DNA of 64,000 nucleotides from positions 1 through 64,000 of IMG/VR virus record IMGVR_UViG_3300035162_004467, one strand, 5' to 3'. Shown here one piece after another: positions 1 through 38,022 of this stretch. The translations under genes and the position numbers were made by a program. This DNA comes from a virus. Within the stretch, counting starts at the first letter, position 1, and each line of letters begins with the position of its first letter. Under the pieces are notes generated by a model. The model saw only the letters and a list, made by a program, of their open reading frames with translations, was not told the origin of the DNA and searched no databases.

Positions 1-83
1 CGGACCACCCTCCACGCACCATCAACTTTTTCTTGGATACTTAGGCATCGCTTGTGACGGTTGTAGTAAACTTTTATTTCCAT
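1..83 (-). CDS. Partial (5' end) small phage hypothetical protein
   Basis: Manual translation MEIKVYYNRHKRCLSIQEKVDGAWRVV..., open to the window edge. It sits behind the same promoter motif as the genes starting at 2076 and 5260. Confidence 0.7.
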   Translation of the reverse strand, partial: MEIKVYYNRHKRCLSIQEKVDGAWRVV

Positions 84-120
84 AACGAGAGTATTCTGAC
101 AGAATTTCGTTCTACAACAA
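84..120 (-). promoter_or_regulatory. sigma70-like promoter, near-leaderless
   Basis: TTGTTG-16-CAGAAT (TGn extended) then ACTCTCGTT-ATG. Near-identical copy at 2077-2113. Confidence 0.6.
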
Positions 121-156
121 GCCTTTTTAAATGTTTTTAATCTAAAAAAAACTTCA

Positions 157-231
157 TAAGTCACTGAACGATAAGGAGTTAGGCGGTCACGCCCCCCGCC
201 CCGCCCTAACCCGTTGACGCTCAACGAGTTA
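157..231. repeat. 25-25-25 element copy 1 (palindrome / GC-rich core / palindrome)
   Basis: TAAGTCACTGA-ACG-ATAAGGAGTTA (157-181), core GGCGGTCACGCCCCCCGCCCCGCCC (182-206), TAACCCGTTGA-CGC-TCAACGAGTTA (207-231). Confidence 0.9.
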
Positions 232-244
232 CGGGGGTTTTCAT

Positions 245-514
245 TTAATCGTCTACCTCTTCAAAGTTGCGCATATGAGATCTAGCATATCGATATACCT
301 TGTTCATAGCTTCGCAGACTTCTGTTCTTTCTATCAAAGCTTGATTCCAAGCCTCCTCTCCTAAAGGGTAGTAATCTCTCTGGTGGAAGTCTACTTCAAG
401 GAGTTTAGCCTGAGCATCTCTTACCGCGCAAAACAAATCGTTGTATCGTCTGCGGAGGCTTTCTTCATCCGATCCATTCATGTGAATGACGGGGAATGTT
501 AATTTTTTAATCAT
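245..514 (-). CDS. Hypothetical phage protein (89 aa)
   Basis: ORF track. 4-nt overlap with the upstream ORF. Confidence 0.75.
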   Translation of the reverse strand: MIKKLTFPVIHMNGSDEESLRRRYNDLFCAVRDAQAKLLEVDFHQRDYYPLGEEAWNQALIERTEVCEAMNKVYRYARSHMRNFEEVDD

Positions 515-738
515 ATGAATTTGTTGTAGCCTTTTGGGTGGATTTGCGTAAAGCCTAACTTTCTAAATGTATCGGCCAACTTGGTCGCGCCGTGTGTCGA
601 GATAGGGATGCGAGTTTGCTCCTTATCAAAATCCCATTCAATGGAATATTCTAAGCCCTTATAGCCATTCTCTTCCTTTTTAACGCTAAAGGTTTTATCG
701 AAATGTCCTGTCAATTTAATTGTTGGTGTTTCGTTCAT
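511..738 (-). CDS. Hypothetical protein (75 aa)
   Basis: ORF track. ATGA-type overlaps on both sides. Confidence 0.7.
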   Translation of the reverse strand: MNETPTIKLTGHFDKTFSVKKEENGYKGLEYSIEWDFDKEQTRIPISTHGATKLADTFRKLGFTQIHPKGYNKFI

Positions 739-920
739 CTTGTTTTATTTTCTTTTTCTTTTTCTCGCTTTCTCCTATCCCCGAACCAAGAAGGGTCAGG
801 GACTTCCATGTTTCTACGTCGCCAAAAATTATTGTAGGCTTTGTTGAACTGATCTGTGAATCCTCTATTTAAGGCAGCGAACTTGTTTGCTTCTGAGAAG
901 TCTGGTTTTATTGGTTCCAT
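735..920 (-). CDS. Hypothetical protein (61 aa)
   Basis: ORF track. Coupled to the next gene. Confidence 0.65.
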   Translation of the reverse strand: MEPIKPDFSEANKFAALNRGFTDQFNKAYNNFWRRRNMEVPDPSWFGDRRKREKEKENKTR

Positions 921-992
921 TCTATTTTCTTCTGAGTATTAACGATATTAAGGTCATTAAAAGGACAACGGCAGTTTCTAATTCTCCTTTGT

Positions 993-1703
993 TCATTTAG
1001 GCTCAACAACAAATCCTGTTTCGTCTTTCTTTGCAAGACCTTTCTCGACTAATCCGACAACCACGCCCTTGGGATCTTTAAACCGCAAATCGTTCTCATC
1101 TCCATTCACAACGGGGGAGCCAAGATAAGTTTTAGGAAGAGAACCACGGAAAACGACGGCGACGTTGCCGCCTAGCGAAAGAATCTTTTTTATTCTGTCA
1201 TCGCTAGTCTCTTCACTGCGGGAGAATGTTAGATGATAGTTGTCAGGCATTTTACCATCAAGCCAAGCTCTCATTCTATAAAAGCCTTTTGTATAATCAT
1301 AAAAATTCACCTGTGGGAACTCTTCCATGACGTTTATTTTATCAGCCCTATGCTTTCGGATATTCTCCCAAGGAATGTCGCTTGTGAGGTTAAGGCGAAA
1401 ACAAGGAGTAAGACTTTTCTTCGCCGCGCTTTTGATAGCCTTGCCGATTTCAATCCTGAGATCCGACATGAAAGCGAAGTTATCCTTAAAGAATCTTTGC
1501 GTTTTCGCGATCCTAGCGGTTTGGACGTTGGACATACAACCGCGACCGGCAGTATCCAAACACGCTGCACGGCATCCCGCGCTTGACCATTGACAGACGT
1601 TGAATCCTGATTTAGCAGCAGGGGATAGATGGAGTCCGAACGTGCGGAATCCAACCTTTTCGCCCTTGAGTGTTTTGGCATTGCCTTGATTTAGTAATTT
1701 CAT
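993..1703 (-). CDS. GP88-family (radical-SAM-like, Cys-rich) phage protein
   Basis: N-terminal NAKTLK, then CQWSSAGCRAAC, RLNLTSDIPWE, FYDYTK, YHLTFS and NGDENDLRF, which recall the phage Gene product 88 family. Confidence 0.7.
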   Translation of the reverse strand: MKLLNQGNAKTLKGEKVGFRTFGLHLSPAAKSGFNVCQWSSAGCRAACLDTAGRGCMSNVQTARIAKTQRFFKDNFAFMSDLRIEIGKAIKSAAKKSLTPCFRLNLTSDIPWENIRKHRADKINVMEEFPQVNFYDYTKGFYRMRAWLDGKMPDNYHLTFSRSEETSDDRIKKILSLGGNVAVVFRGSLPKTYLGSPVVNGDENDLRFKDPKGVVVGLVEKGLAKKDETGFVVEPK

Positions 1704-1725
1704 CGTGTTTTTTTATATTAAAAAT

Positions 1726-2076
1726 TTACCACCAGCAAGAATAAAAGACTTTTTCTCCATTATTAATGGCCTTGAGACCGGCCTTGGTAAAGTCGAGATC
1801 CTTCTCTTTGCGCCAATCATCTTGGCTACTGTCAGGACCGTAAAAGAAACCTTGCGTTTCTGGCAAATCGCCAGCTTCGACGACTGACCGGAGAATCTTT
1901 AAATCCTCGGCAGTCAATTCCATGGGCTCACCATTCAATTCACTTTCTGGCTTCCCAGTTTTAATCGCCCAGAGTTTTTCCATCCACCCTTGCAAGGCGT
2001 TGTGCTTCCTCCAATCACAGATTTCAAAATCTTCTCCATTGGAGTCCCGACTGTTTGCGTATTGATCTAATCCCAT
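1726..2076 (-). CDS. Conserved phage hypothetical protein (MGLDQY...WRKHN...GFFYG...YSCWW type)
   Basis: Motif pattern common in phage early regions. Has its own promoter. Confidence 0.8.
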   Translation of the reverse strand: MGLDQYANSRDSNGEDFEICDWRKHNALQGWMEKLWAIKTGKPESELNGEPMELTAEDLKILRSVVEAGDLPETQGFFYGPDSSQDDWRKEKDLDFTKAGLKAINNGEKVFYSCWW

Positions 2077-2113
2077 AACGAAAGTATTCTGACAGGATTT
2101 TCAACTCGGACAA
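2077..2113 (-). promoter_or_regulatory. sigma70-like promoter, near-leaderless
   Basis: TTGTCC-16-CAGAAT-ACTTTCGTT-ATG. Confidence 0.6.
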
Positions 2114-2187
2114 GCCTTTTTTAATGATTATTAATTATTTTTTAGTGCTTGACTTATGCGGATTAAACACTAAGCAGAAAACCTTCC

Positions 2188-2262
2188 TAACTCACTGAGT
2201 GATAGCTAGTTACGGGGTGCGGCGGGGGCGCGGCCCCTAACTCATTGATACTCAACGACTTA
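2188..2262. repeat. 25-25-25 element copy 2
   Basis: TAACTCACTGA-GTG-ATAGCTAGTTA (2188-2212), core CGGGGTGCGGCGGGGGCGCGGCCCC, TAACTCATTGA-TAC-TCAACGACTTA (2238-2262). Confidence 0.9.
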
Positions 2263-2288
2263 CAGCGATTTTATTTTATTTTATTAAC

Positions 2289-2327
2289 AAAAGAAAAACC
2301 CCGCCCCCCATGCAGAGGGGACGGGGC
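2289..2327 (-). terminator. Intrinsic terminator
   Basis: Minus strand GCCCCGTCCCCTCTGCATGGGGGGCGGGG followed by TTTTTCTTTT, just after the DUF932-like stop. Confidence 0.8.
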
Positions 2328-2345
2328 TTGCTATGTCAAGGAAAT

Positions 2346-3143
2346 TTAAGCGGGAAGCACTAGGGCCGAATTTTTATCTGCCTCAGTAATCAAGGAAGGA
2401 TTCGCGACCCTGTCAAGAATATTTTGAGCCTCCATTGTCATGCGTGGAAGGTGCATGACATTGTTAGCGGTTAGACCTTTGTAAGACTCTGTGATAGCAT
2501 TAAAGATATTCCAAAGTGTTCCACGGTATTCGTGGAAGGCTCCTTTAGTGCCATCCACATCGACACCGCCATTCTGAACAAGGTCGAAGAACTCACCAAT
2601 CTTGGTCGGCTTGACGAGACCAGCCTTGAGGAGCTTATTGATTACCTCGACCTCATTAGCCTCAGTATTTTTGTAAGCATCAATGCGCTTTCCTTCATTG
2701 TCCCAAGTCTGCTGGATGGACTGGATCGCGTTGTTCATGATAAGCGGGAGATCTGCAAAGATGTTACGGGTGTGCTTACGCGACAAGGTGATATCAGAAG
2801 AGAAGCAAAGGTTTTCACACACAAGCATCGAAGAACCAACCGCGACAGAACTAGAGAACTTCTGATTGTGAGAGTTCCGAAGACCAAAGACAAGCTCGCG
2901 GTCGGTATTGTCGAAGTCTGATTTGCGAATGGCGAAACCAGAAAAGCAATTCATGCCTTTCTCGGAAAGCCCGTGCTCCTCTTGTGCAACATCGAAGCCA
3001 TTGGCCCCCAACTCACGCTTGGCGATATCAACCAACTCGTGATGGTCGATAGGGAAGTGACGCGAACCCATAGGCGCAGGCTTTTTGATTTCCTTGAGCT
3101 GATCGTAGCTGACTTTATTGGAGGAGTAGATTAGGTTTTTCAT
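2346..3143 (-). CDS. DUF932-like phage/plasmid protein
   Basis: GLRNSHN...MLVCENL...RKH and TLWNIFNAITE motifs typical of DUF932. Confidence 0.7.
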   Translation of the reverse strand: MKNLIYSSNKVSYDQLKEIKKPAPMGSRHFPIDHHELVDIAKRELGANGFDVAQEEHGLSEKGMNCFSGFAIRKSDFDNTDRELVFGLRNSHNQKFSSSVAVGSSMLVCENLCFSSDITLSRKHTRNIFADLPLIMNNAIQSIQQTWDNEGKRIDAYKNTEANEVEVINKLLKAGLVKPTKIGEFFDLVQNGGVDVDGTKGAFHEYRGTLWNIFNAITESYKGLTANNVMHLPRMTMEAQNILDRVANPSLITEADKNSALVLPA

Positions 3144-3196
3144 AGTAGTAGTTTCTAATTGGTTGACTGTCAGAGAACTGCCTCTGAACTGGTGAG

Positions 3197-3225
3197 AGTA
3201 TAAACCATTTTTTTATCAAGCACAA
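3197..3225 (-). promoter_or_regulatory. sigma70-like promoter with a ~50-nt leader containing a hairpin
   Basis: TTGTGC-17-TATACT. The leader carries the hairpin TCAGAG-GCAGTT-CTCTGA. Confidence 0.6.
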
Positions 3226-3387
3226 TACCTTTTTGCGTTAAAAGTGATTTTTTTTTGGGCCAACAATGCCAAATATTTTTACAAATAATCTTGACAAACA
3301 TCGCCAGATATTTAAGCAAATAATTGGTTAAGGTCACTAAGGTTAAATGCAAATAAGCCAAATATATAGGCCCAGATCTATAAGAGA

Positions 3388-3506
3388 TAACCTACTGATA
3401 CTCAGTGAGTTAAAGTTCACGAAAAACGTCCTAAGTCACTACTACTCAACGAGTTAGAGCCGGGCGCGGGGGCTTCCGCGCTAACTCACTGATATTCAAC
3501 GAGTTA
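3388..3506. repeat. 25-25-25 element copy 3, plus a third palindrome
   Basis: Palindromes at 3388-3412, 3432-3456 and 3482-3506. 19-bp AT-richer gap, then 25-bp core GAGCCGGGCGCGGGGGCTTCCGCGC. Confidence 0.9.
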
Positions 3507-3578
3507 CAGCGTTTTTTTCTAAAATGATTTTTGCGAGGAGGTCAACTAAAAAAGAATTTATTTTTTGCTTGCAAGCAC

Positions 3579-3609
3579 AAAAAAAACCTGCCCCCCGCAG
3601 GGGATAGGC
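3579..3609 (-). terminator. Intrinsic terminator
   Basis: Minus strand CCTATCCCC-TGCG-GGGGGCAGG followed by T8. Confidence 0.75.
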
Positions 3610-3617
3610 CGATCATA

Positions 3618-3776
3618 TTATTTAGAGGCTTTTAGGATTTGAGTTTTCTTTTCAGAAATTAACTTTTCTCCCTCAAGGGTGGAAAGGCCGTAGGATTTGA
3701 GCTTTCTTAAACCTTCTTTCATTCCTCTCAATTCTGCTTTATACATTCTTACTGTCCAGTTATCGTTTTCGCTCAT
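3618..3776 (-). CDS. Small basic hypothetical protein (52 aa; not in ORF track)
   Basis: Manual translation MSENDNWTVRMYKAELRGMKEGLRKLKSYGLSTLEGEKLISEKKTQILKASK*. Fills the gap before the terminator. Confidence 0.6.
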   Translation of the reverse strand: MSENDNWTVRMYKAELRGMKEGLRKLKSYGLSTLEGEKLISEKKTQILKASK

Positions 3777-3796
3777 GGGTATGTATTTAATTTAAT

Positions 3797-4009
3797 TTAA
3801 TTTTGAATGCGTGAGAAGTGGAGAGTTCTGAAAATTTGCTTCTTGCCGGTTTTGCTGTCATGGCTCACATCAACCACTTTGCAAACTGCGAATTCCTTAG
3901 TAGAACGCTCAACTCCGCGAAGTTGATACATACGGAGATTTTCATTGTTGGAAGTAGTATAAGTGAACTGCTTCTTGATTAGGCGAGTGATATTGTCTTG
4001 GTTTGTCAT
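3797..4009 (-). CDS. Small protein, possible WYL-like/Sm fold
   Basis: FTY...R...VD...FRTLHFSRI. Shares its motif with 4889-5260. Promoter TTTTAA-17-TAAAAT-6-ATG at 4010-4044. Confidence 0.7.
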   Translation of the reverse strand: MTNQDNITRLIKKQFTYTTSNNENLRMYQLRGVERSTKEFAVCKVVDVSHDSKTGKKQIFRTLHFSRIQN

Positions 4010-4073
4010 GTGGATATTTTACTTTAAAAACGCAGAAATTAAAAGGTTTTTCTGTATGTATTTTAATCTTTTT

Positions 4074-4253
4074 TTAAGGGAGAAATCTTCCGTCTTGCTC
4101 TGGGGCATCTGGGAGAACCGCTTGGAATTCTTTTTGGGATGCTTCGCAATCTTTTATGAACTGGCCCGAAACCTCGACAGTCTCATCCACCATTTTGTTC
4201 CATGCTTGTTCTGCTTTTGCCATTGCTGCGAGGGCTTCTTGTGATGTGGTCAT
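4074..4253 (-). CDS. Small hypothetical protein (59 aa; not in ORF track)
   Basis: Manual translation MTTSQEALAAMAKAEQAWNKMVDETVEVSGQFIKDCEASQKEFQAVLPDAPEQDGRFLP*. Confidence 0.65.
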   Translation of the reverse strand: MTTSQEALAAMAKAEQAWNKMVDETVEVSGQFIKDCEASQKEFQAVLPDAPEQDGRFLP

Positions 4254-4277
4254 AATGTCAGTGTTTTTATTGTTTTT

Positions 4278-4526
4278 TTATCCTTCAAAGTAAAGACCCA
4301 ATCCCTTTTCAGTGGGGATGTAGTGATTTTGATTTACCCAAGCAAAGCAAGTGATCAAGCCCAATTTGGTCAAGAGATCTCTGGAGTCGCTAGACTGGCA
4401 CTGCAATGCCCATTCATTCGGATAAAGCGCATCTTCCGTTCCCTCCACGCTGGCAGCAGGGCGACAGATTTTGATCAAGAGTTTAGCAGCGGAGAAGGGG
4501 AGTCTGGTTTGGTTCAGGTCGGACAT
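4278..4526 (-). CDS. Hypothetical protein (82 aa; start re-called to MSDLNQ)
   Basis: Promoter TTTTAA-17-TATACT-6-ATG (4527-4561) lies inside the longer ORF call. The C-terminal L-L-KLGLI...YIPTEKG is winged-helix-like. Confidence 0.65.
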   Translation of the reverse strand: MSDLNQTRLPFSAAKLLIKICRPAASVEGTEDALYPNEWALQCQSSDSRDLLTKLGLITCFAWVNQNHYIPTEKGLGLYFEG

Positions 4527-4644
4527 GGGCATAGTATAAAGGAAAATCTCAGAGATTAAAAGTTTTTTCTGCATGTATTTAATCTTTTTTTTTATTTAAA
4601 AAGGCTTGACATAGGCGAGCTATAGAGTAGGGGGAAAAGCCTCG

Positions 4645-4719
4645 TAAGTCGTTGATACCCAACGAGTTAGCGCCCAAGGGGGGGCGCTCCGCTCTAAGTC
4701 GTTGTCGCTCAGTGAGTTA
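4645..4719. repeat. 25-25-25 element copy 4
   Basis: TAAGTCGTTGA-TAC-CCAACGAGTTA (4645-4669), core GCGCCCAAGGGGGGGCGCTCCGCTC, TAAGTCGTTGT-CGC-TCAGTGAGTTA (4695-4719). Confidence 0.9.
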
Positions 4720-4831
4720 GAGCGTTTTTATTTAAATGTTTTTTATTTACTTTTTTAACCCTGAAAGGCTTGACACTCTCGCCATTCTGATTTAAGGTGA
4801 GGTGACACCCTCGTTCCAAGAGGCCAGCCGC

Positions 4832-4868
4832 AGAAGAAAACCCGCCAGCCTCCGAAGAGACTGACGGG
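4832..4868 (-). terminator. Intrinsic terminator (cUUCGg loop)
   Basis: Minus strand CCCGTCAGTCTC-TTCG-GAGGCTGGCGGG followed by TTTTCTTCT. Confidence 0.85.
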
Positions 4869-4888
4869 ATACACACTTAACACAGAAA

Positions 4889-5260
4889 CTAGTAAACTGA
4901 TTTCGCCAGTGCAATGGCCGTGGCCAAGCGGCCTTTTACTTTGGTGATCCCTGCAACGTGCAGGGTGCGGAACTTAGCCTCGCCTCCATCGTCTAGGTCT
5001 TGGACTTTGCCTTGGATGTAGCGACGGCCCGTACTTTTAGCATAGCCAGAGCGCTCAATTTCTTTGATTACTAACTGACGGATTCCGTCAGCCTTAACAG
5101 TAGACTCGCCTTTATTAAGGTAGGTCACGACACGATTGGTCAACTTGTTCTTGAGGTCTTCGTCACTGAGGCGATAGAGGGGATTCCCGCCAGTGCCGAC
5201 CCAGTGATCGCAGCGGGAGGAGGTGGAGGAGGTGGAGGAGGTGGTAGTGTTGTTTTTCAT
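4889..5260 (-). CDS. Hypothetical protein, possible WYL-like/Sm fold
   Basis: VTY...R...QD...KFRTLHVAGI. Promoter TTGTAA-17-TAAAAT-9-ATG at 5261-5298. Confidence 0.75.
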   Translation of the reverse strand: MKNNTTTSSTSSTSSRCDHWVGTGGNPLYRLSDEDLKNKLTNRVVTYLNKGESTVKADGIRQLVIKEIERSGYAKSTGRRYIQGKVQDLDDGGEAKFRTLHVAGITKVKGRLATAIALAKSVY

Positions 5261-5317
5261 AACGAGAGTATTTTAACTTATTTTTGGACTGCTTACAAGG
5301 ATTGTTTTGCAGTTTTC

Positions 5318-5563
5318 TTATTTTATTTCGTAGAACTTCTTCAAGGTGAGATCTCCTATCACTAGGAGAACCGCGCCGACAATGCTCGGCAGGAACATGA
5401 CAGCGAGAAAGTCAAGGCCATCCCATCCGTGCAGCACGGACGCTAAGAGTTCAGGGCCAGAGCCTAGCAAAATGACAGAGACTATGGCTACGAGATTGAA
5501 GCTTACGCATATCATCATGGAGAAGAGGAAGCGATCTACTAGGCGGTTGATTATTTTTTTCAT
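5318..5563 (-). CDS. Small membrane protein (2 TM)
   Basis: Two hydrophobic stretches with basic termini. Confidence 0.65.
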   Translation of the reverse strand: MKKIINRLVDRFLFSMMICVSFNLVAIVSVILLGSGPELLASVLHGWDGLDFLAVMFLPSIVGAVLLVIGDLTLKKFYEIK

Positions 5564-5607
5564 GTGGGTAGTTGTGGTTTAATGTTTGGTGGAGTTAAGT
5601 AAGGTGA

Positions 5608-5799
5608 TTAGAACCAATGCTGATCTCTGTCTTCCTTGTGCTTTGCGAGAACTTTCTCAAGTCTTTCTTTGATCTCAGGGTTGTCGAATGTCAGGAGACC
5701 AGTGATATAACAAAGTTCGTAACGCATGTCGCTTGCGGCAGTGCTCTCTTTAATGAACATGTCAAAGTAGTTTTTTTCTGTGTCGGTCGTCTCAGTCAT
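5608..5799 (-). CDS. Hypothetical protein (63 aa; start re-called to MTETTD)
   Basis: Consensus-like promoter TTGACA-18-TATACT-6-ATG at 5800-5835. Confidence 0.7.
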   Translation of the reverse strand: MTETTDTEKNYFDMFIKESTAASDMRYELCYITGLLTFDNPEIKERLEKVLAKHKEDRDQHWF

Positions 5800-5856
5800 G
5801 GAAGTAGTATAGTTGAAAAGCGGGGGGATTGTCAACCCCCCTTTTAAATGTTTTTT

Positions 5857-6051
5857 TTAGGAAGTGAAGACTTTCCAGAAGGTTTTATTTGCATGGCAGC
5901 ATTTTACTTCGAAGGTCTCGCCTTGGTAGCAAGTGACCGATCCTAATTTTTCAGCACACATTTGCTTGAACTCTTCAGGGTTTTCGCCCCATCCGTTCAT
6001 TGTGCCTAGGTTTTTGTACGTGTCTTGGATTTGTTTCAGTGTCATTCTCAT
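5857..6051 (-). CDS. Hypothetical Cys-containing protein (64 aa)
   Basis: ORF track. Promoter TTGCAA-17-TAAACT-6-ATG at 6052-6086. Confidence 0.7.
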   Translation of the reverse strand: MRMTLKQIQDTYKNLGTMNGWGENPEEFKQMCAEKLGSVTCYQGETFEVKCCHANKTFWKVFTS

Positions 6052-6096
6052 GTGGGTAGTTTACTTTATTTTCTTGAGTGTTGCAAGCTTTCTTTG

Positions 6097-6345
6097 CTAG
6101 TAAATTGCTTCCTCTAATTTCTGGCAGAAAAGGTCTGTGTCTTCCATGATGAAGTCGAGCTCTTCTTCCGATGCCTTGCGCCATGCACCATCGAACTTGC
6201 GGATGCTAGCTGAAGTGATAAAAGCATCGCAGAAGTCAGGGGCATCGCTGGCATCGATGCCGTCGATCACGATATTTTCGACCTCGTAGACCTCGTTGAT
6301 GATGTTGACCCTGTCGGCTTTGGCGCTGTAGTTATTTTTTTCCAT
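6097..6345 (-). CDS. Acidic hypothetical phage protein (DGID..D.PDFCDAFI type)
   Basis: ORF track, start re-called. Promoter TTTTAA-17-TATACT-6-ATG at 6346-6380. Confidence 0.75.
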   Translation of the reverse strand: MEKNNYSAKADRVNIINEVYEVENIVIDGIDASDAPDFCDAFITSASIRKFDGAWRKASEEELDFIMEDTDLFCQKLEEAIY

Positions 6346-6571
6346 GGGCAAAGTATAACCTAAGCAGCTCAGATTTAAAAGCTTTTTCTTGTACTATTTC
6401 AGCTTTTTTTTATAGGGGGGGGTTTTCTGAAAGTTTTTGCTTTTTCACTTGACTCGCACACAGCAGGGGGGTGGTGAACACTATAAGTAAACTTTTTTTA
6501 TAACTAATGGAGGATACGTCATATAATAAAATACAGCTACAAGGATAAACCCGTGTAATAGATAAAAACAA

Positions 6572-7246
6572 ATGGCAAGAGATAATAGCTTATTGTTGGG
6601 TCATATAGAATTGACAGAGAAACAAAGAGAATTCTATGACATCATGACAGATGACAAAACACGAATAGTGTTTATTGGGGGTCCAGCAGGAACCGCTAAG
6701 ACATTCCTTTCTGTTTACTCCGCATTAGATTTATACAATAGCGACAAAAGCTTAAAAATATTGTATTTGCGTAGTGTGGTGGAGAGTGCGGATAGGGGGA
6801 TGGGTTTTCTGAAAGGAGACATTGATGATAAGTTTGGGCCATATATGGCTCCGCTTTTAGATAAGATCGATGAGTTGCTGAATAAGCCAGAGAAAGACCA
6901 ATTAAAAAATAAAAGGGTACTGGAAGCGGAACCGATAAACTTTTTGCGCGGATGTACTTGGAGGGAAAAGGTGGTTATTGTGGATGAAGCTCAGAATATG
7001 AGTGTGAGAGAATTGACTACTGTGCTTACAAGGATAGGTCGGGGTAGTAAGTTATTTCTATGTGGGGACAGTTTGCAGAGTGACATTAGGAATAGTGGTT
7101 TTGCTAAGTTGGCTGATTTATTTAGAGACGAGCGGAGTTCCGAAAAAGGGGTGCATAGTGTCGAATTTAGCAAAGAAGATGTGATAAGAGATAAAATTAT
7201 CAGTTATATTGTAGAAAAAATTGAATTATTAGCAAGAAAGCACTAA
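6572..7246 (+). CDS. phoH: PhoH-family ATPase
   Basis: GPAGTAKT Walker A, MGFLKGD, FLRG.T, VDEAQN, LTRIG, GDSLQSD, DVIR. Confidence 0.92.
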   Translation: MARDNSLLLGHIELTEKQREFYDIMTDDKTRIVFIGGPAGTAKTFLSVYSALDLYNSDKSLKILYLRSVVESADRGMGFLKGDIDDKFGPYMAPLLDKIDELLNKPEKDQLKNKRVLEAEPINFLRGCTWREKVVIVDEAQNMSVRELTTVLTRIGRGSKLFLCGDSLQSDIRNSGFAKLADLFRDERSSEKGVHSVEFSKEDVIRDKIISYIVEKIELLARKH

Positions 7247-7254
7247 AATTTCAT

Positions 7255-7629
7255 ATGAATAAAGTTTTCTGCTCTTCCTGCGGTCACAAAAACGTGTACG
7301 AAGTGACCAAGTCTAAGTTTTGTACGGCGTGTGGTTCTCCGATTGGATCGGCTACTCCTGAACCAGCTCGTAAAGAAGCTGTTGCAGGAATCGAACATGA
7401 AGAAGAGGGTTCCACCTCTTTTGACTTACGTAAAATGAAGAATGATATTGTTTCTGAAGCGAACACACAACAAACCACTTTAACTGATCTTTGGAAATCT
7501 GCGACTCCTGAAGACGCTAACAAGAGTAAGGTTTCTAGGCCAGCATCAAATTTGCCTGATGGCGATGCTATAATTAAACAAAATCAAACTGACTGTGCGT
7601 CATCTAGAGTCCAAGACATTGATGGTTAA
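7255..7629 (+). CDS. Zinc-ribbon protein
   Basis: FCSSCG...KFCTACG at the N-terminus. Confidence 0.75.
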   Translation: MNKVFCSSCGHKNVYEVTKSKFCTACGSPIGSATPEPARKEAVAGIEHEEEGSTSFDLRKMKNDIVSEANTQQTTLTDLWKSATPEDANKSKVSRPASNLPDGDAIIKQNQTDCASSRVQDIDG

Positions 7630-8296
7630 GACTTACGAAGACCTCATCCCAGAAATCGAAGAACTTTTAAGTAGGTATAGGACCAAGTGGCAGCTTAACT
7701 CCATAGCTTGGTTGGATTATGATGATGTATCTCAAATAATCCGTACTCATCTTTTTAAAAAGTGGCATTTGTGGGACCAGAAGAGAGCATTCAAGCCTTG
7801 GGCTTCTATGTTGATTAGTAATCAGATAAAGAATCTGGTAAGGAATCATTATGGGAACTTCGCTAAACCATGCTTGCGTTGTTCTTTTTATTTTGGGGGA
7901 GATGAATGTGGTTTTACTAAGAGTAGGGTGCAGGATGAAGAGTGTGGTGATTTTGCTAAATGGAAGAGTAAAAAGCAGAGTGCATTTCACTTAAAAATGC
8001 CAGTATCTTTAGATTCATTAATTTCTGTTAAAGACCGAATGAACGAAGATGAATTAGACTACGACAAGAAAACGGCTAAGATGCATAAGTTGGTCATGTC
8101 TGAATTGAATGATAAACATAAAGAGATATACAAGTTATTATTTATAGACCACATGGATGAAGTTGAGGTTGCCAAGCAGTTTGGGTTCAAGCGAGATACA
8201 AGTAAAAGAAAAACGCCTAGATACAAACAAATAAACAACCTGAAGAAGAAGTTTTATAATATAGCCGCGAAGTTAATAAAAGAGGAAGATTTGTAA
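7622..8296 (+). CDS. Phage sigma70/ECF-like sigma factor with a Cys-rich insertion
   Basis: Region-2-like DYDDVSQ...WDQKRAFKPWASMLISNQIKNLVR. Region-4-like LNDKHKEIYKLLF...EVAKQFG. CLRC...C...C lies between them. Confidence 0.7.
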   Translation: MVKTYEDLIPEIEELLSRYRTKWQLNSIAWLDYDDVSQIIRTHLFKKWHLWDQKRAFKPWASMLISNQIKNLVRNHYGNFAKPCLRCSFYFGGDECGFTKSRVQDEECGDFAKWKSKKQSAFHLKMPVSLDSLISVKDRMNEDELDYDKKTAKMHKLVMSELNDKHKEIYKLLFIDHMDEVEVAKQFGFKRDTSKRKTPRYKQINNLKKKFYNIAAKLIKEEDL

Positions 8297-9354
8297 TGAT
8301 ATATGATTTAACGGAGGAGCAGAAAGAGGAAATCTTAAAACTGTTTAAAAAAAACCCTGACTTAATGTTTATAACCCGCAAGATATTTGGGGATGAGACT
8401 ATTGATGGGAGGTCTAAACAAGGTCGTGCCGTGAGGAAGTTCTTAGCAGGACAAGACAAGAAAGCGAATACATCTCTTGTCCCCAAAGTAGAGCAGATTC
8501 ATTTGACAAAAGAGCAAAAAGAGTTCTTGATGACTGACAATATCGAAGTTGGCATGAATGCTTTAGAAATTGCCAGACTTACTTTCAAAGATCGTGACGT
8601 TCAACCCTTGAGTATTAAGCACAGAATCATTGTTGATTTCTTAAGAACTTACAGGCCAGAGGTTGTAGACGATAACGAAATTATTACAAAAGAGAAGTGG
8701 ACTCCACCTAAGTCTATAAACAGAGCGATTGTTAAGATAAATAACTTCTGCGGCACTCGTCTAGAGGAACTGAACCTCCAAACAAAACAAAAGAGATTAG
8801 TAGAGCAATTAATTCTTTATTTTAAAAGTCCTCGCTTCAACCATTTTATTAATCAGTATGCGACTATAGCTGACAGAAGCTTATTCGAAAGCGAGTTTGT
8901 CCGTGCTGTTTGGGACAAGCCTGACCTCACTAACGACGAATTGAATCTATATGTGACTGTATGTGCTAACTACGTGCGCCAGAAACACATCCAGATGCGT
9001 ATTGACAAGCTTAATGCACTACTAGACGACCAAGACAACGAAAGGGACATCACAATGCGTCTGACGGAGATTATCAAGGCGACCAGTGAAGAGCTTAACC
9101 AGTGCGAGAAGCGTATTGAGTCTTTAACAAAGGACTTGAATGGATCTAGAACTGCAAGGCTGAAGGCCAAGGGAGAAGAGAACGGTTCTATCTTCGCTTT
9201 GGTTGAGGCTTTCCAAGACCGTGAAGAGCGTGACCGTATGATCATGATGGCTGAACTTCAAAATAAATTAATTGAAGAAGAGGCTGATAGGTTGGAGAGC
9301 ATGGACGATTATAAAGCAAGGATCTTGGGAATATCCAAAAAAGAATTATTATGA
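8296..9354 (+). CDS. Coiled-coil protein, candidate terminase small subunit
   Basis: Two repeated LT.EQKE helical units and a coiled-coil C-terminus. The position upstream of TerL is inference only. Confidence 0.45.
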   Translation: MIYDLTEEQKEEILKLFKKNPDLMFITRKIFGDETIDGRSKQGRAVRKFLAGQDKKANTSLVPKVEQIHLTKEQKEFLMTDNIEVGMNALEIARLTFKDRDVQPLSIKHRIIVDFLRTYRPEVVDDNEIITKEKWTPPKSINRAIVKINNFCGTRLEELNLQTKQKRLVEQLILYFKSPRFNHFINQYATIADRSLFESEFVRAVWDKPDLTNDELNLYVTVCANYVRQKHIQMRIDKLNALLDDQDNERDITMRLTEIIKATSEELNQCEKRIESLTKDLNGSRTARLKAKGEENGSIFALVEAFQDREERDRMIMMAELQNKLIEEEADRLESMDDYKARILGISKKELL

Positions 9355-31439: not shown

Positions 31440-32821
31440 TGAGCGATATAGGTTTACTTTTTAAATTGCAAGATAAGCAATCGTCTAACCAGAAGCTATC
31501 AGCTTTTTATGATTTTACATTTGACTCTTCAGATGAAGCCAATGTACAAGGAGATAGTAGTAGTTCGACTTACACAGGAGTGCAAGTCAACTCTACTTTC
31601 GCCAATGATACTTCTTTACATACTGGATTTTTACTTGGGTCTATAGATAGTAGTGAAGCTAGTTCACTGATAAAGGCTTCGGGTATATTGCAAGGAAATA
31701 AGCTAAATTTAACTTCTGGAAATTTTCAAGTTCCTTTCGATGGTTTGAACGCAAACGATATATCAGTCTTGATCGATTTCGAGTTTGCTGACGGAGATTT
31801 TGATGATGGAATTATCATGGGTTGTTTCAAAACTGGAGAAGAAACGATTAATTCCTTAAATATAGAAACTTCTGAAGGATTCAATATTGGAGTTACCGAT
31901 AGGGGTCATTTGTTTTGTCAAACTTTTGGACCTAATGGTGATGCGATTAATATAGCTCACCCTATAGAGCTATCTAAAAGAAATTTAATTTCAGTATCTA
32001 CAACAGATACTTTTATCACACTTAGTTATTTTGATTATTTCAATGACTTAGTGAGAAGCTTGGCGTTGCCTGTAGATAGAAATTATATTTCCTCTACTTC
32101 AGTGTTGAATTTCGGAGGTAGCGATACTTATTTTAGATCAACGGACAATGAAACTGCAACATTTAGCGGGAGTTTAAATAGTCTAGCCATTTTCTCTGGT
32201 TACATAGAAGAAGAGTTTTTAAAAGATTTGGGGGAAGGTATGCTTGGTAGTTACAGCTTTACTGCTGGGTCTACAGTCACAGAGCAAAGACTTACTGGAT
32301 ATGCTGATACAATCAGTTATAAAACTGGAATAACTGGCTATGATTATATCTCTACTGGCACATTAGAGATAATTACAGGAAGAGAAGAATTTACTGGTAG
32401 TACATCACCGGCTTCTCCAGACAGTAAAAAAGAAGGGGAGCGTTACTACAAGTATTATACGTTAAATAATGGTAACGTTAAAACATTCTATAAAGAAGAG
32501 TTGGGCCAACTCCATTCAGATTCTGGATATATTTATTATCCAACGGGAGAAGGCGCTTTTGACACTTTAGGTTTAAACGATATATCTGAATCAATAGATG
32601 CTTATACAGAGCTTACTGGGATGACTCAAGATAAAATAACGATTGATTTGTTTGGGAAGACTCCTTTGACTGGCACACTTTCTGAAGTCAGTGGAGTTGT
32701 CCAGACTGCTTTGGAAGAAACTTATTCTATATATACCCCAAGTTCTTCTGGAGTAACTCTTGAAGAAGATAGCGAAGATTTTAAGAAAAACTTTATTTAT
32801 TACATGGGAGGTCGGTCATGA
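31439..32821 (+). CDS. Tail protein with LamG/ConA-like domain
   Basis: LSAFYDF...LNFGG...FSGSLNSLAIFS pattern. TG-rich C-terminal half. Confidence 0.6.
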   Translation: MSDIGLLFKLQDKQSSNQKLSAFYDFTFDSSDEANVQGDSSSSTYTGVQVNSTFANDTSLHTGFLLGSIDSSEASSLIKASGILQGNKLNLTSGNFQVPFDGLNANDISVLIDFEFADGDFDDGIIMGCFKTGEETINSLNIETSEGFNIGVTDRGHLFCQTFGPNGDAINIAHPIELSKRNLISVSTTDTFITLSYFDYFNDLVRSLALPVDRNYISSTSVLNFGGSDTYFRSTDNETATFSGSLNSLAIFSGYIEEEFLKDLGEGMLGSYSFTAGSTVTEQRLTGYADTISYKTGITGYDYISTGTLEIITGREEFTGSTSPASPDSKKEGERYYKYYTLNNGNVKTFYKEELGQLHSDSGYIYYPTGEGAFDTLGLNDISESIDAYTELTGMTQDKITIDLFGKTPLTGTLSEVSGVVQTALEETYSIYTPSSSGVTLEEDSEDFKKNFIYYMGGRS

Positions 32822-33624
32822 CTTACAATTATATTGTATCTACTGGAGACTCTACTATATCAGGTAGTGTTCTAAATATTTTGGATAACAATCAAATCTC
32901 TTATTCTAGACAACAATATGAAAAAGATATATATGTCATTCGAGACGAGGATGGGGAACAAAAAGAAAACCCATTTTATTTTAATGATTCTATAATCACG
33001 GGATCAAATTGCTCTTTATTAAGCCTCAACTCTCAAACTTTACTTGAGGGAGGATTTTCTATCACAACTGGGGCAAACAAATATTATTATAATATAAATG
33101 ACTCTGGTAATTATGTTGTTGATGCAGAGAATTCAAAAGGTAATATTATTTTTGATCCAGTTTTAACCTTAGGCTATCAGGATTTCATCCTTTATGATAA
33201 AAGAGATTTTGCTACTGGAATTTTAATTTACTCTACTTCTTCTTTTGATTTTATAGCTATTGATGCTCTTAGATCTAAAGTAGATTCTGCTTATTCTAAT
33301 GCTTCGACAGCAGGGCTTTTATTTGATAATTACGATGTTTTTTTTAATGGGCAAAAGTTAAAGTTATATGAATACCCCAATTCTACTGTTACAGGGAACT
33401 TCTTTGCTATCCCCAAAAAAGATGGAATAATTGATGTGCATTCTGATGAGCCTGATTTATTCGGGTCAGGATTTGTAGAGCACCACCTTGATCTTTATTT
33501 AAATGGAATGGAGCAAGATAATCAAGATTGTCTTCAATTGTATACTGGAGTGTATATGATAGAGACAGGGGTGAACTCTTCGTTCACTTTGGTTAGTGAA
33601 GAAACAGAAACTTATGTATTGTAA
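32818..33624 (+). CDS. Putative tail protein
   Basis: Repeated VFFNGQKL / LYLNGMEQ motifs. Lies in the tail operon. Confidence 0.55.
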   Translation: MTYNYIVSTGDSTISGSVLNILDNNQISYSRQQYEKDIYVIRDEDGEQKENPFYFNDSIITGSNCSLLSLNSQTLLEGGFSITTGANKYYYNINDSGNYVVDAENSKGNIIFDPVLTLGYQDFILYDKRDFATGILIYSTSSFDFIAIDALRSKVDSAYSNASTAGLLFDNYDVFFNGQKLKLYEYPNSTVTGNFFAIPKKDGIIDVHSDEPDLFGSGFVEHHLDLYLNGMEQDNQDCLQLYTGVYMIETGVNSSFTLVSEETETYVL

Positions 33625-36912: not shown

Positions 36913-38022
36913 TCAATCAGTATAAAGCATAAGTTTATCTAAGTCAACGAAAATATCGTCTAAATTTTCTTCGCTGTTAGCTTCGAAAAGAGAGTGATAC
37001 GCTTTTCTATTCTTGAAGTAAATTGTATAAGATTTTATTTTTAAATTCTTTTTAGGCAGTTTTAGCTGTTTTTTATTTTTTTCTATTTTTTCAGATTCGT
37101 CAATTAGAGCGATCTGATCATCAAAAAACTTATACCTTTCCTCTTCGAGAGTTTCTTCGTTTGTGCAAAACAAACGCAAAGCAACTCCTTTCTTTTTAGC
37201 TTGTTCGATGAACTCTGCATCAAAGCGATCAGAGAAATAATTTATACAGTTTATGTTTTTTTGACTTAAAACTTGGTCCCCTAAAGGTTTGTTGGTAACG
37301 ATTGAAATTTGGTTGTCTTTGAATAAATGAAGAGTATTTTCTTCGTTATGAAGTAAATCAAACCTAAGGACTATCTTTTTGGAAGATGCATCATATTTAT
37401 GATCTGGTATAATATGAATGAATTCTTCTTTATATTTACCCCCAATAAAAATCGTTTTTCTAGAACTTTTATTTTTACCTAATTTTTTAAGAATAGCATT
37501 AGCTATTTGCTCTGGATTAATTAAGTTAATTTGTTTGGGGTTCTCTTTCAAAGAGTAGGATGGTTTCTTCCCATTTCTATGAGATTCAATTATCGCATGG
37601 TTCTTTTTCGAACCCCAAACTGGACTGCAAGTAGAGGCATGTGTGTGCGCGTATATCGCAACAATAGGCTTGTCAAAAGAAGAGGCAATGTGAACTGGCA
37701 AACTATCTATCCCAACATGCATAAGCCCATTCTTAATAATGTAAGCAGATTGCTTGATACTTTGAGTAGCAGCGAACTTTGTAACGTTTTTTATTTTTGG
37801 TTCTCCCCCAGAGCCTATTTGAATAAACTTAATATCTGGAGCTTTTTGCTTGACTAAAGATATAACCTCCTCCCAATAATCGTATTCTTTAGATTGAACT
37901 TTATTATCATTGTGAATGGTAATATAATTCTCTTCAAGAAGAGGAAAAAAATGAGGTTTAAAATGTGGTTCACCAATCTTAACTCCCAAATCTTTTGCGT
38001 AAACTTCTACTAGGTGGCTCAT
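36913..38022 (-). CDS. Glycosyltransferase, GT9 (heptosyltransferase)-like
   Basis: K.YDYWEEV, IQIG, HVGIDSLPVHIASSFDKPIVAIY. Confidence 0.75.
   Translation of the reverse strand: MSHLVEVYAKDLGVKIGEPHFKPHFFPLLEENYITIHNDNKVQSKEYDYWEEVISLVKQKAPDIKFIQIGSGGEPKIKNVTKFAATQSIKQSAYIIKNGLMHVGIDSLPVHIASSFDKPIVAIYAHTHASTCSPVWGSKKNHAIIESHRNGKKPSYSLKENPKQINLINPEQIANAILKKLGKNKSSRKTIFIGGKYKEEFIHIIPDHKYDASSKKIVLRFDLLHNEENTLHLFKDNQISIVTNKPLGDQVLSQKNINCINYFSDRFDAEFIEQAKKKGVALRLFCTNEETLEEERYKFFDDQIALIDESEKIEKNKKQLKLPKKNLKIKSYTIYFKNRKAYHSLFEANSEENLDDIFVDLDKLMLYTD

Follow-up and report, generated by a model that had tools for sequence, protein, structure and literature searches.

Composite modules in the early region

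The DNA studied here, called the window, is the first 64 kb (64,000 nucleotides) of the 85,310-bp IMG/VR record IMGVR_UViG_3300035162_004467, itself 62% complete, and close to its left end it carries four copies of a composite intergenic element, the module, in which two 25-bp palindromes enclose a 25-bp GC-rich core. The source is an uncultured marine phage whose DNA is present in marine and brine metagenomes from 13 studies. Its large terminase is no more than 26% identical to that of any cultured phage, which places it in a broad uncultured clade and not among the T4-type phages, and positions 1-8000 had no match among GenBank phages by blastn. All plausible genes in 1-6500 lie on the minus strand; seven of ten early open reading frames (ORFs) are without a Pfam match, and seven of ten are without a PHROG match. 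The early ORFs (84-6400, minus strand) start 7-12 nt past -10-like hexamers, for example at the repeats D5, D10 and D14, and because of this distance and the lack of a Shine-Dalgarno block they look leaderless. A 37-nt promoter block (D4) recurs at 4039, 4556 and 6375. The genome had been called AT-rich in the original prediction, which holds in a relative sense only, the GC content of the window being 32-45% in 2-kb bins.

Nine copies of the palindrome start at 157, 207, 2188, 2238, 3388, 3432, 3482, 4645 and 4695, and they make up four 25-25-25 units and one solo copy, with palindrome starts exactly 50 bp apart within each of the four units. A pattern search allowing up to three mismatches gave 17 strand-hits against 0.03 expected, a number reached in none of 100 shuffles; the rest of the 85,310-bp record held no further palindrome, and a control search with the reversed pattern gave 0. 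A repeat finder returned 103-nt copies at 146-248, 2177-2279, 3421-3523 and 4634-4736, with 61-71% identity to the reference copy, so that both searches agree with the coordinates and anatomy first claimed for the four elements. The palindrome at 3482-3506 has 0 mismatches to the consensus on both strands. The cores of copies 1-4 hold 23, 24, 22 and 21 G+C of 25, respectively. Those of copies 2, 3 and 4 carry plus-strand G runs of five, five and seven, and the core of copy 1 is inverted relative to them, since its run is C6 on the plus strand. The features of the region are the following.

144 to 241, no strand assigned: module 1, with A-run 144-151, palindrome 157-181, core 182-206, palindrome 207-231 and T-run 238-241
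2149 to 2283, plus strand: module 2 and its inward promoter-like site, with -35 TTGACT 2149-2154, a 16-nt spacer, -10-like TAAGCA 2171-2176, palindrome 2188-2212, core 2213-2237, palindrome 2238-2262 and T-rich run 2269-2283
2296 to 2329, minus strand: canonical terminator-like hairpin and T-run of ORF 2346-3143, upstream of module 2 in gene direction
3388 to 3412, no strand assigned: solo palindrome, 44 bp ahead of module 3, where modules 2 and 4 carry the inward promoter
3432 to 3518, no strand assigned: module 3, with palindrome 3432-3456, GC core 3457-3481, palindrome 3482-3506 and T-run 3512-3518
3587 to 3604, minus strand: terminator-like hairpin and T-run of ORF 3618-3776, upstream of module 3 in gene direction
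4585 to 4738, no strand assigned: 154-bp unit of inward promoter, module 4 and T-run, missing in a contig from a different marine run
4606 to 4729, plus strand: module 4 and its inward promoter-like site, with -35 TTGACA 4606-4611, a 16-nt spacer, -10-like TAGGGG 4628-4633, palindrome 4645-4669, core 4670-4694, palindrome 4695-4719 and T-run 4725-4729
4841 to 4868, minus strand: terminator-like hairpin and T-run of ORF 4889-5260, upstream of module 4 in gene direction

The hairpins at 2329-2296, 3604-3587 and 4868-4841 precede copies 2-4 in gene direction, in agreement with the earlier statement that these copies lie beside intrinsic terminators. Module 1 starts 13 nt past the stop of the minus-strand ORF 245-514 and has no inward -35. 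It had also been stated that four palindromes contain a perfect IHF consensus. For WATCAR-N4-TTR, the form used for site prediction in the accessible part of a published analysis (PMC9452768), there are exactly four perfect WATCARNNNNTTR matches, all on the minus strand, in the palindromes at 2238 (spanning 2238-2250), 3388, 3482 and 4645. These are four matches against 0.33 expected in 1982-5006, all inside palindromes, and 0 in 1-1731.

Two side observations concern the edges of the array. In contigs of two DNA runs the sequence carries on leftward of position 1 for more than 1.1 kb and includes a further 1-241-like copy; the array probably reaches past the contig end. To the right of module 4, a plus-strand promoter-like site (TTGACA 4768-4773, 17 nt, TAAGGT) stands ahead of a plus-strand terminator-like hairpin at 4916-4933; this pair, at 4768-4940, could yield an RNA of about 130 nt that runs antisense both to the minus-strand terminator at 4868-4841 and to the 3' end of the gene it serves, ORF 4889-5260.

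A family of spaced palindromes in uncultured phages

The exact palindrome pattern was scanned against IMG/VR and found in at least 119 stretches; the counts given for this family here and below are among the matches listed. There are 590 sites at up to four mismatches. Neighbouring sites are exactly 50 bp apart in 153 cases, 48-52 bp apart in 47 more and 58 bp apart in 30. At least 226 distinct double units are formed, 148 of which have a core of 25 bp, with the remaining cores measuring 19-35 bp. The GC fraction is 0.88 in cores of the 25-bp class vs 0.40 for the loci as a whole, and the longer cores are plain GC hairpins. The 153 distances of exactly 50 bp and the 148 of 226 units with a 25-bp core uphold the expectation that the spacing is conserved in relatives, and the element is a member of a large, apparently undescribed family. 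In a relative that is 100% complete (G008), seven units lie in two clusters at 24.0-27.0 kb and 140.3-143.0 kb. G006 has seven units with 52-bp spacing at 25.5-32.4 kb, and G007 has one solo palindrome without a double unit.

For a logo, 147 units of 50-bp spacing were aligned, with the G-rich core strand setting the orientation. It reads, in order, an A-run, C.TCG, the first palindrome, CG, a G-rich and then C-rich core, CCG, the second palindrome, CA..G and a T-run, and the G clusters of the core fall at position-specific sites. Upstream of this there is TTGA at -38 to -35 and TA at -16/-15. Without regard to orientation, inward TTGAC starts exactly 39 bp before the palindrome in at least 66 flanks, with 12 at the next-best position, and its reverse complement shows no positional peak (maximum 6) in the flanks of the matches listed. 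Because the spacers between -35 and TA differ among units, promoter and unit are not one copied block. Among 221 units of the matches listed, the inward promoter is present on one side in 58, on both sides in 18 and on neither in 145. The promoter-sense strand is the G-rich strand in 41 units vs 12, and the next gene downstream of the promoter is on the opposite strand in 43 of 57 units. Copies 2 and 4 of the window follow the 39-bp rule on the plus strand and so run antisense to every gene beside them. If transcription began about 7 nt past the -10, the first palindrome would lie at about +5 to +29, which is an operator position. An operator or enhancer function had been among the candidate roles of the original prediction, and it gains an argument from the fixed distance of TTGAC, which sets the palindrome there.

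Gene order changes at the modules. Gene adjacencies seen in at least five loci never contain a site among the matches listed. An adjacency that runs across a double unit is shared by a mean of 0.73 other loci and is unique in 52% of cases (n=33), vs 3.39 other loci and 33% unique for other gaps of at least 150 bp (n=33) and 12.4 for tight gaps. In DNA alignments, 773 of 998 module-locus pairs are homologous on one flank only, and where an alignment runs from the shared flank into a module it stops at the far edge, with 128 ends at +70 to +90. The 154-bp absence noted above has its joint at 4584->4739, with six letters common to both sides. Contigs of other marine and brine runs skip cassettes at 3572->4834, 3572->5794, 4729->5852 and 4054->4273, and one variant contig has a copy-4-like unit in place of copy 3. 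A cassette-wise variation of gene content at the elements among relatives, raised earlier as a point to check, is borne out by the adjacencies across units, about half of them unique, and by contigs that are without module 4 or without whole cassettes. As to the suggested shuffling of promoter-gene cassettes at the elements, a homologous, PeSL-like exchange is favoured by the synteny breaks and the variant contigs; the integron-like version is not, since the tyrosine recombinase (PF00589) and the serine recombinase (PF00239) are both absent from the three genomes searched, one of them 100% complete. The window cassettes carry their own promoter-like sites and terminators, unlike the promoterless cassettes of integrons.

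The neighbourhood of the units is also partly shared with the window. A PhoH-like ATPase (6572-7246, plus strand) is found in at least 46 loci, a zinc-ribbon protein (7255-7629, plus strand) in at least 38 and a sigma-70 region-2 protein (7595-8296, plus strand) in at least 33; these three genes, which stand just to the right of the array, are the commonest neighbours of units among the relatives listed. DUF932 and GP88 proteins are shared as well. The 123-aa protein of ORF 4889-5260 (minus strand) has a conserved beta-rich core of about 80 aa and occurs in at least 35 of 119 loci, and it gave no lead from Pfam, PDB profiles or the Atlas. A GGAGGAGGTGG-type repeat at 5210-5258, where reads seem to be cut, encodes the Thr/Ser run that forms its N-terminus. 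The other small proteins common to the loci listed were assigned to no family. Two further genes are encoded near units and are leads only as readers of the palindrome, namely a C2H2-finger ERCC4-like nuclease in at least 17 loci and a RuvB-like AAA+ winged-helix protein in at least 12 of 119. The latter was found in G006 and G008, and not in G007 or in the incomplete record of the window itself. The relatives' genes are located as follows.

L042:4154-5065, L043:5072-6025, and G008:C1:11675-12127, 130358-130825 and 32751-32969: RuvB-like and ERCC4-like genes

Reading of the palindromes and competing explanations

Whether the palindrome is read as duplex DNA or as folded RNA can be judged from how its arms vary. 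In 554 sites of the matches listed, pair 4-22 is Watson-Crick in 251 sites vs 262 expected, with a G.G or C.C mismatch in 46%, and pair 8-18 in 358 vs 359. Only pair 7-19 shows a modest excess (283 vs 228). A long hairpin joining both palindromes was considered and rejected, as it shows no covariation (pair 22-54, 71 vs 75.9; pair 4-72, 38 vs 53.2). Moreover, the unit as a whole is symmetric, the core-side arms being TAAC in about 82% of units and the outer arms mixed. Since the arms vary independently and the unit pattern is symmetric, the palindromes are probably half-sites read on double-stranded DNA, and the protein-DNA architecture proposed earlier for the strict spacing seems to be the better reading, given the independent variation at pairs 4-22 and 8-18.

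As for the reader, the family logo retains ATCA, R and TTA of WATCAR-N4-TTR, and its conserved and variable positions follow that consensus; the leading W-A is present on a given strand in about half of the family sites listed. Because the arm matches the IHF core consensus position by position, a host DNABII protein would be the leading candidate. Bacteroidota have IHF-like host factors. That the word is kept across very different phages argues for a very conserved reader. The same 25-bp word stands as single copies in an intergenic region of cultured Bacteroides phages, among short iterons. In Bacteroides phage BT709P1 (OP172730.1, L129), the 600-bp intergenic region 2700-3306 has palindromes at 2758 and 3003 and a half copy at about 3069, and it looks like an origin or control region because the palindromes are interspersed with about eight CATCTATCC-like iterons. 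Together with sporadic single palindromes in bacteria of several phyla, these copies suggest that the reader may be universal.

The bacterial scan gave at least 120 stretches, and the taxon shares of bacterial and IMG/VR matches are not representative. The bacterial matches listed are mostly from Bacteroidota and Fibrobacter, with some from Lentisphaeria, Verrucomicrobia and others, and 104 of 120 loci have a single site. Among about 138 bacterial sites listed, 26 lie on the 3' side of a tRNA or tmRNA gene, at most 45 nt from its end, and 0 lie on the 5' side. These tRNA/tmRNA-adjacent palindromes (L130-L249) stand 2-33 nt past the 3' end of genes of many identities, and they look like terminator hairpins because most of them have a T-run. 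At up to one mismatch the palindrome was found in 0 of 150 other Bacteroidota genomes; there are 1-4 copies in four genomes and about 53 in one Saprospiraceae metagenome-assembled genome, where the copies sit inside a longer repeat that breaks its contigs. A site of a host regulon was rejected. The neighbours in Fibrobacter and other taxa are unrelated housekeeping genes, with recurrent ones reflecting only Fibrobacter synteny, and the orthologous tRNA-Arg terminators in seven other Flavobacterium genomes are ordinary hairpins with different stems; because the word is sporadic in this way, it is no site of a host regulon. An attachment site of integrated elements was set aside too, since only one of the ten genes that adjoin tRNA-adjacent palindromes is an integrase. 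The 25-25-25 layout also recalls a CRISPR-like mini-array, which was rejected since the two 'repeats' of one unit differ, bacterial copies are single, and the cores are uniformly about 88% GC with positioned G runs and dyad symmetry; cas genes and protospacers were not searched. Nor is the module a tRNA-like or other known RNA, there being no tRNA in the window by ARAGORN and no Rfam match at the elements in 1-9000 (E <=1) or at the single palindromes of eight bacterial loci.

Taking these results together, we tentatively favour, with a confidence somewhat short of even, the explanation that the elements are protein-bound insulators and recombination linkers with IHF-type sites, similar to PeSL or BIME elements. 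Each element would be a protein-organised boundary module of a hyperplastic early-gene region. The palindromes would be bound as duplex DNA by a protein that is dimeric or bends DNA, with the host's IHF/HU (DNABII) type as the likeliest candidate, and the stiff GC core would keep two such proteins 50 bp apart. Once loaded, the module may halt read-through in both directions by means of its GC hairpin and the A- and T-runs on its flanks, and it may occlude the inward promoter because the first palindrome lies at about +5 to +29; with both effects each leaderless cassette would be transcriptionally insulated. The palindromes may in addition act as linkers for homologous exchange, since they are the only sequence common to otherwise unrelated cassettes, and the partners would be co-infecting relatives, as with PeSLs in T4-type phages.

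Several observations weigh against this explanation. Of the four positions that the IHF consensus leaves as 'N', two are conserved here at 93-95%, which argues for a reader more specific than IHF. No HU/IHF gene (PF00216) was found in G000 or G006, which leaves a host protein or an unrecognised one as the reader. The core covaries as a dyad (pairs 26-50, z 6.8; 32-44, z 5.6; 28-48, z 4.4; 33-43, z 3.5; such z-values ignore relatedness and are upper bounds), and this is a feature that a duplex-only model does not require. RNA folds of whole modules in the window modestly beat shuffles (z -0.1 to -4.0). With regard to insulation, a consensus terminator scan flags the neighbouring hairpins and not the modules, a canonical terminator already precedes three of the four copies in the window, and the inward -10 is poor, with T at the sixth position in about 37% of the logo. 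With regard to exchange, the modules are not the sole linkers, as ordinary promoters or terminators hold some of the joints in other runs, and there is no precise empty site among 200 modules compared across loci.

The covariation of the core and the fixed promoter could also be accounted for if modules were self-contained minigenes, an alternative that we regard as unlikely. In such a minigene the inward host-type (sigma-70) promoter, 39 bp before the palindrome, would produce a G-rich RNA of about 95 nt, or an R-loop, from about 4 nt before the first palindrome to the T-run. The RNA would consist of two constant hairpins around a variable GC hairpin, with an antisense, sponge or guide-like role, and its 25-nt GC core between constant handles could target, titrate or prime something specific. 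The constant promoter distance with its TA and the T-run after the unit fit this, as do the coincidence of the G-rich and promoter-sense strands, the covarying core, and the antisense orientation to the neighbouring gene. The second palindrome has a covarying 3-bp extension (z 2.6-3.0) just ahead of the T-run, which itself sits 5-6 nt after the palindrome, so that the stem extension spans part of the gap; and promoter, module and T-run come and go together as one 154-bp block. However, 145 of the 221 units, including window copies 1 and 3, are without such a promoter, the palindrome stems show no compensatory change, and G.U pairs do not clearly exceed A.C pairs in promoter-oriented units (135 vs 108). 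A strong T-run is present in 14 of 58 units only, and no Rfam family was matched. A single RNA run (0.06 word share) gave contigs that span coding parts only and is uninformative on a small RNA. Somewhat less probable again is a compound bidirectional intrinsic terminator that works without protein, made of three adjacent hairpins between A- and T-runs and kept by descent and gene conversion. The runs flank the unit on both strands at about 60% per position and covary weakly (z about 3-3.7); copy 1 is the only terminator-like structure behind its gene; 26 of the bacterial palindromes listed stand near tRNA or tmRNA 3' ends, most with a T-run; and the accessible part of the report on PeSLs gives their stem-loops as proven terminators (PMC2839356). 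Against it, the stems show no compensatory change and have the frequently mismatched pair 4-22, it is the sequence and not the structure that is conserved across distant phages, the modules escape the terminator scan and have modest fold z-scores, and the rigid 50-bp spacing and fixed inward -35 are left unexplained.

The remaining explanations appear improbable to different degrees. The modules could be non-autonomous mobile elements (REPIN, BIME, PATE or MITE-like) whose movement depends on a hairpin-reading transposase. In favour are the paired palindromes with a short spacer, the high copy number in one Saprospiraceae genome, the sporadic occurrence across phyla, and the fact that one strain has the entire 154-bp unit and another does not, with short direct repeats at the joint. 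We give this a low probability, since the Y1 transposase/RAYT (PF01797) is absent from all three phage genomes searched, one of them 100% complete, there is no GTAG-type head and no precise empty site, and the arms do not show the hairpin constraint expected under single-strand recognition. A transcription-primed replication origin or R-loop element, in which G-rich RNA would form on a C-rich template between two initiator sites, is very improbable, although it would make sense of the strand bias, of the G clusters at fixed core positions and of the RuvB-like gene near units; a GC-rich core is no unwinding element, each genome has 4-7 copies, the promoter is missing from most units, and no RuvB-like gene was found in the 62% complete record of the window. 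An equally slight chance is left for a site-specific recombination site (attC-like or res-like) or a T5-like injection-stop or condensation signal. The cassette-like layout, the two dimer-size sites 50 bp apart and the array at a contig end would fit, but the recombination site is disfavoured by the missing recombinases, by cassettes with their own promoters and by the odd 3-bp palindrome centre. The injection-stop role that had been proposed by analogy with T5 was not supported: the units are dispersed, the complete relative has two separate clusters (24-27 kb and 140-143 kb), and the DnaA-box pattern has no match in 1-6000, its two matches in the window being at 37162 and 43955. The probability left beyond the protein-bound insulator and linker and these alternatives belongs to something not considered.

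Among rigid cis-elements of uncultured tailed phages the module seems to rank with the commonest, being present in at least 119 IMG/VR stretches. If its palindromes are super-sites of a universal DNA-bending protein, they would show how nucleoid proteins of the host are put to work by phages in partitioning takeover genes and insulating them. Should the palindromes be linkers for exchange, they would explain why these regions are mosaic and would provide a sequence handle for early and anti-defence islands in metagenomes. If the inward promoter makes RNA, there would be a large unrecognised family of phage small RNAs. Under every one of these readings the module may be a compact, testable part for insulating synthetic gene cassettes.

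Comparison with known systems

No description of the element was found in Rfam or in the literature searched, supplementary files being outside the search. The remark in the original prediction that no description was known thus stands as far as the element itself goes, and has to be qualified in that PeSLs and BIMEs are close in concept. Among the matches to 11-mers in the literature, those inspected were a quantitative PCR primer and predicted Dickeya IHF sites, and they were rejected as coincidental. Like IHF sites, each palindrome arm carries ATCAR-N4-TTA, and the four perfect matches of the window are predicted sites of this kind. Unlike IHF sites, the palindrome is a perfect dyad of two overlapping cores and there is no A/T tract upstream of the core. 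The injection-stop signal of T5 is one long untranslated region with eight DnaA boxes, in the accessible part of its description (preprint 10.1101/866236). The units differ from that region, so far as it is described there, in being dispersed between genes and free of DnaA boxes in 1-6000.

Boccard and Prentki reportedly dealt in 1993 with BIME-1 (RIB/RIP) and IHF binding. BIME-1 elements of enterobacteria consist of two REPs around an IHF-binding linker and lie at the 3' ends of transcription units, in the portion of the source that is accessible (PMC2817692), and judged from that portion they are the closest to the modules in composition. Both are regular, composite extragenic elements of about 100 bp that combine GC-rich imperfect palindromes with an IHF-type site. 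However, here two IHF-like palindromes flank one GC dyad, and BIME-1 has the reverse order. BIME-1 depends on RAYTs by the same account, in contrast to the modules, which have no GTAG-type head and no RAYT gene. Moreover, unlike REP and BIME sequences, the modules are not a high-copy, species-specific bacterial repeat; they are phage-borne, use the same word across phyla and are rare in bacteria.

The closest system in role is that of the PeSLs of T4-type phages, which in the accessible text of their description are cassettes of about 100 bp that join a sigma-70-like promoter and an AT-rich stretch to a terminator with a poly-G/poly-C stem-loop (Arbiol et al., 2010, PMC2839356). Recombination between PeSL copies shuffles orphan genes and yields mini-circles, according to the same text (PMC2839356). 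The comparisons that follow take PeSLs as that text presents them. The GC stem-loop of the modules is bracketed by two 25-bp palindromes with a rigid 50-bp spacing, unlike that of PeSLs, and the fixed promoter of the modules points inward and is mostly antisense to the genes. The strong early promoter of PeSLs, which has an AT-rich upstream region and follows the stem-loop, drives the next gene through a Shine-Dalgarno sequence, whereas the genes of the window look leaderless. Nevertheless, PeSLs and modules are both conserved intergenic composites of about 100 bp, placed in hyperplastic regions where small orphan genes abound. Each combines sigma-70-like promoters and an AT-rich stretch with a GC stem-loop in which a G tract gives way to a C tract, and copies of either kind sit where relatives differ by insertions, deletions or replacements.

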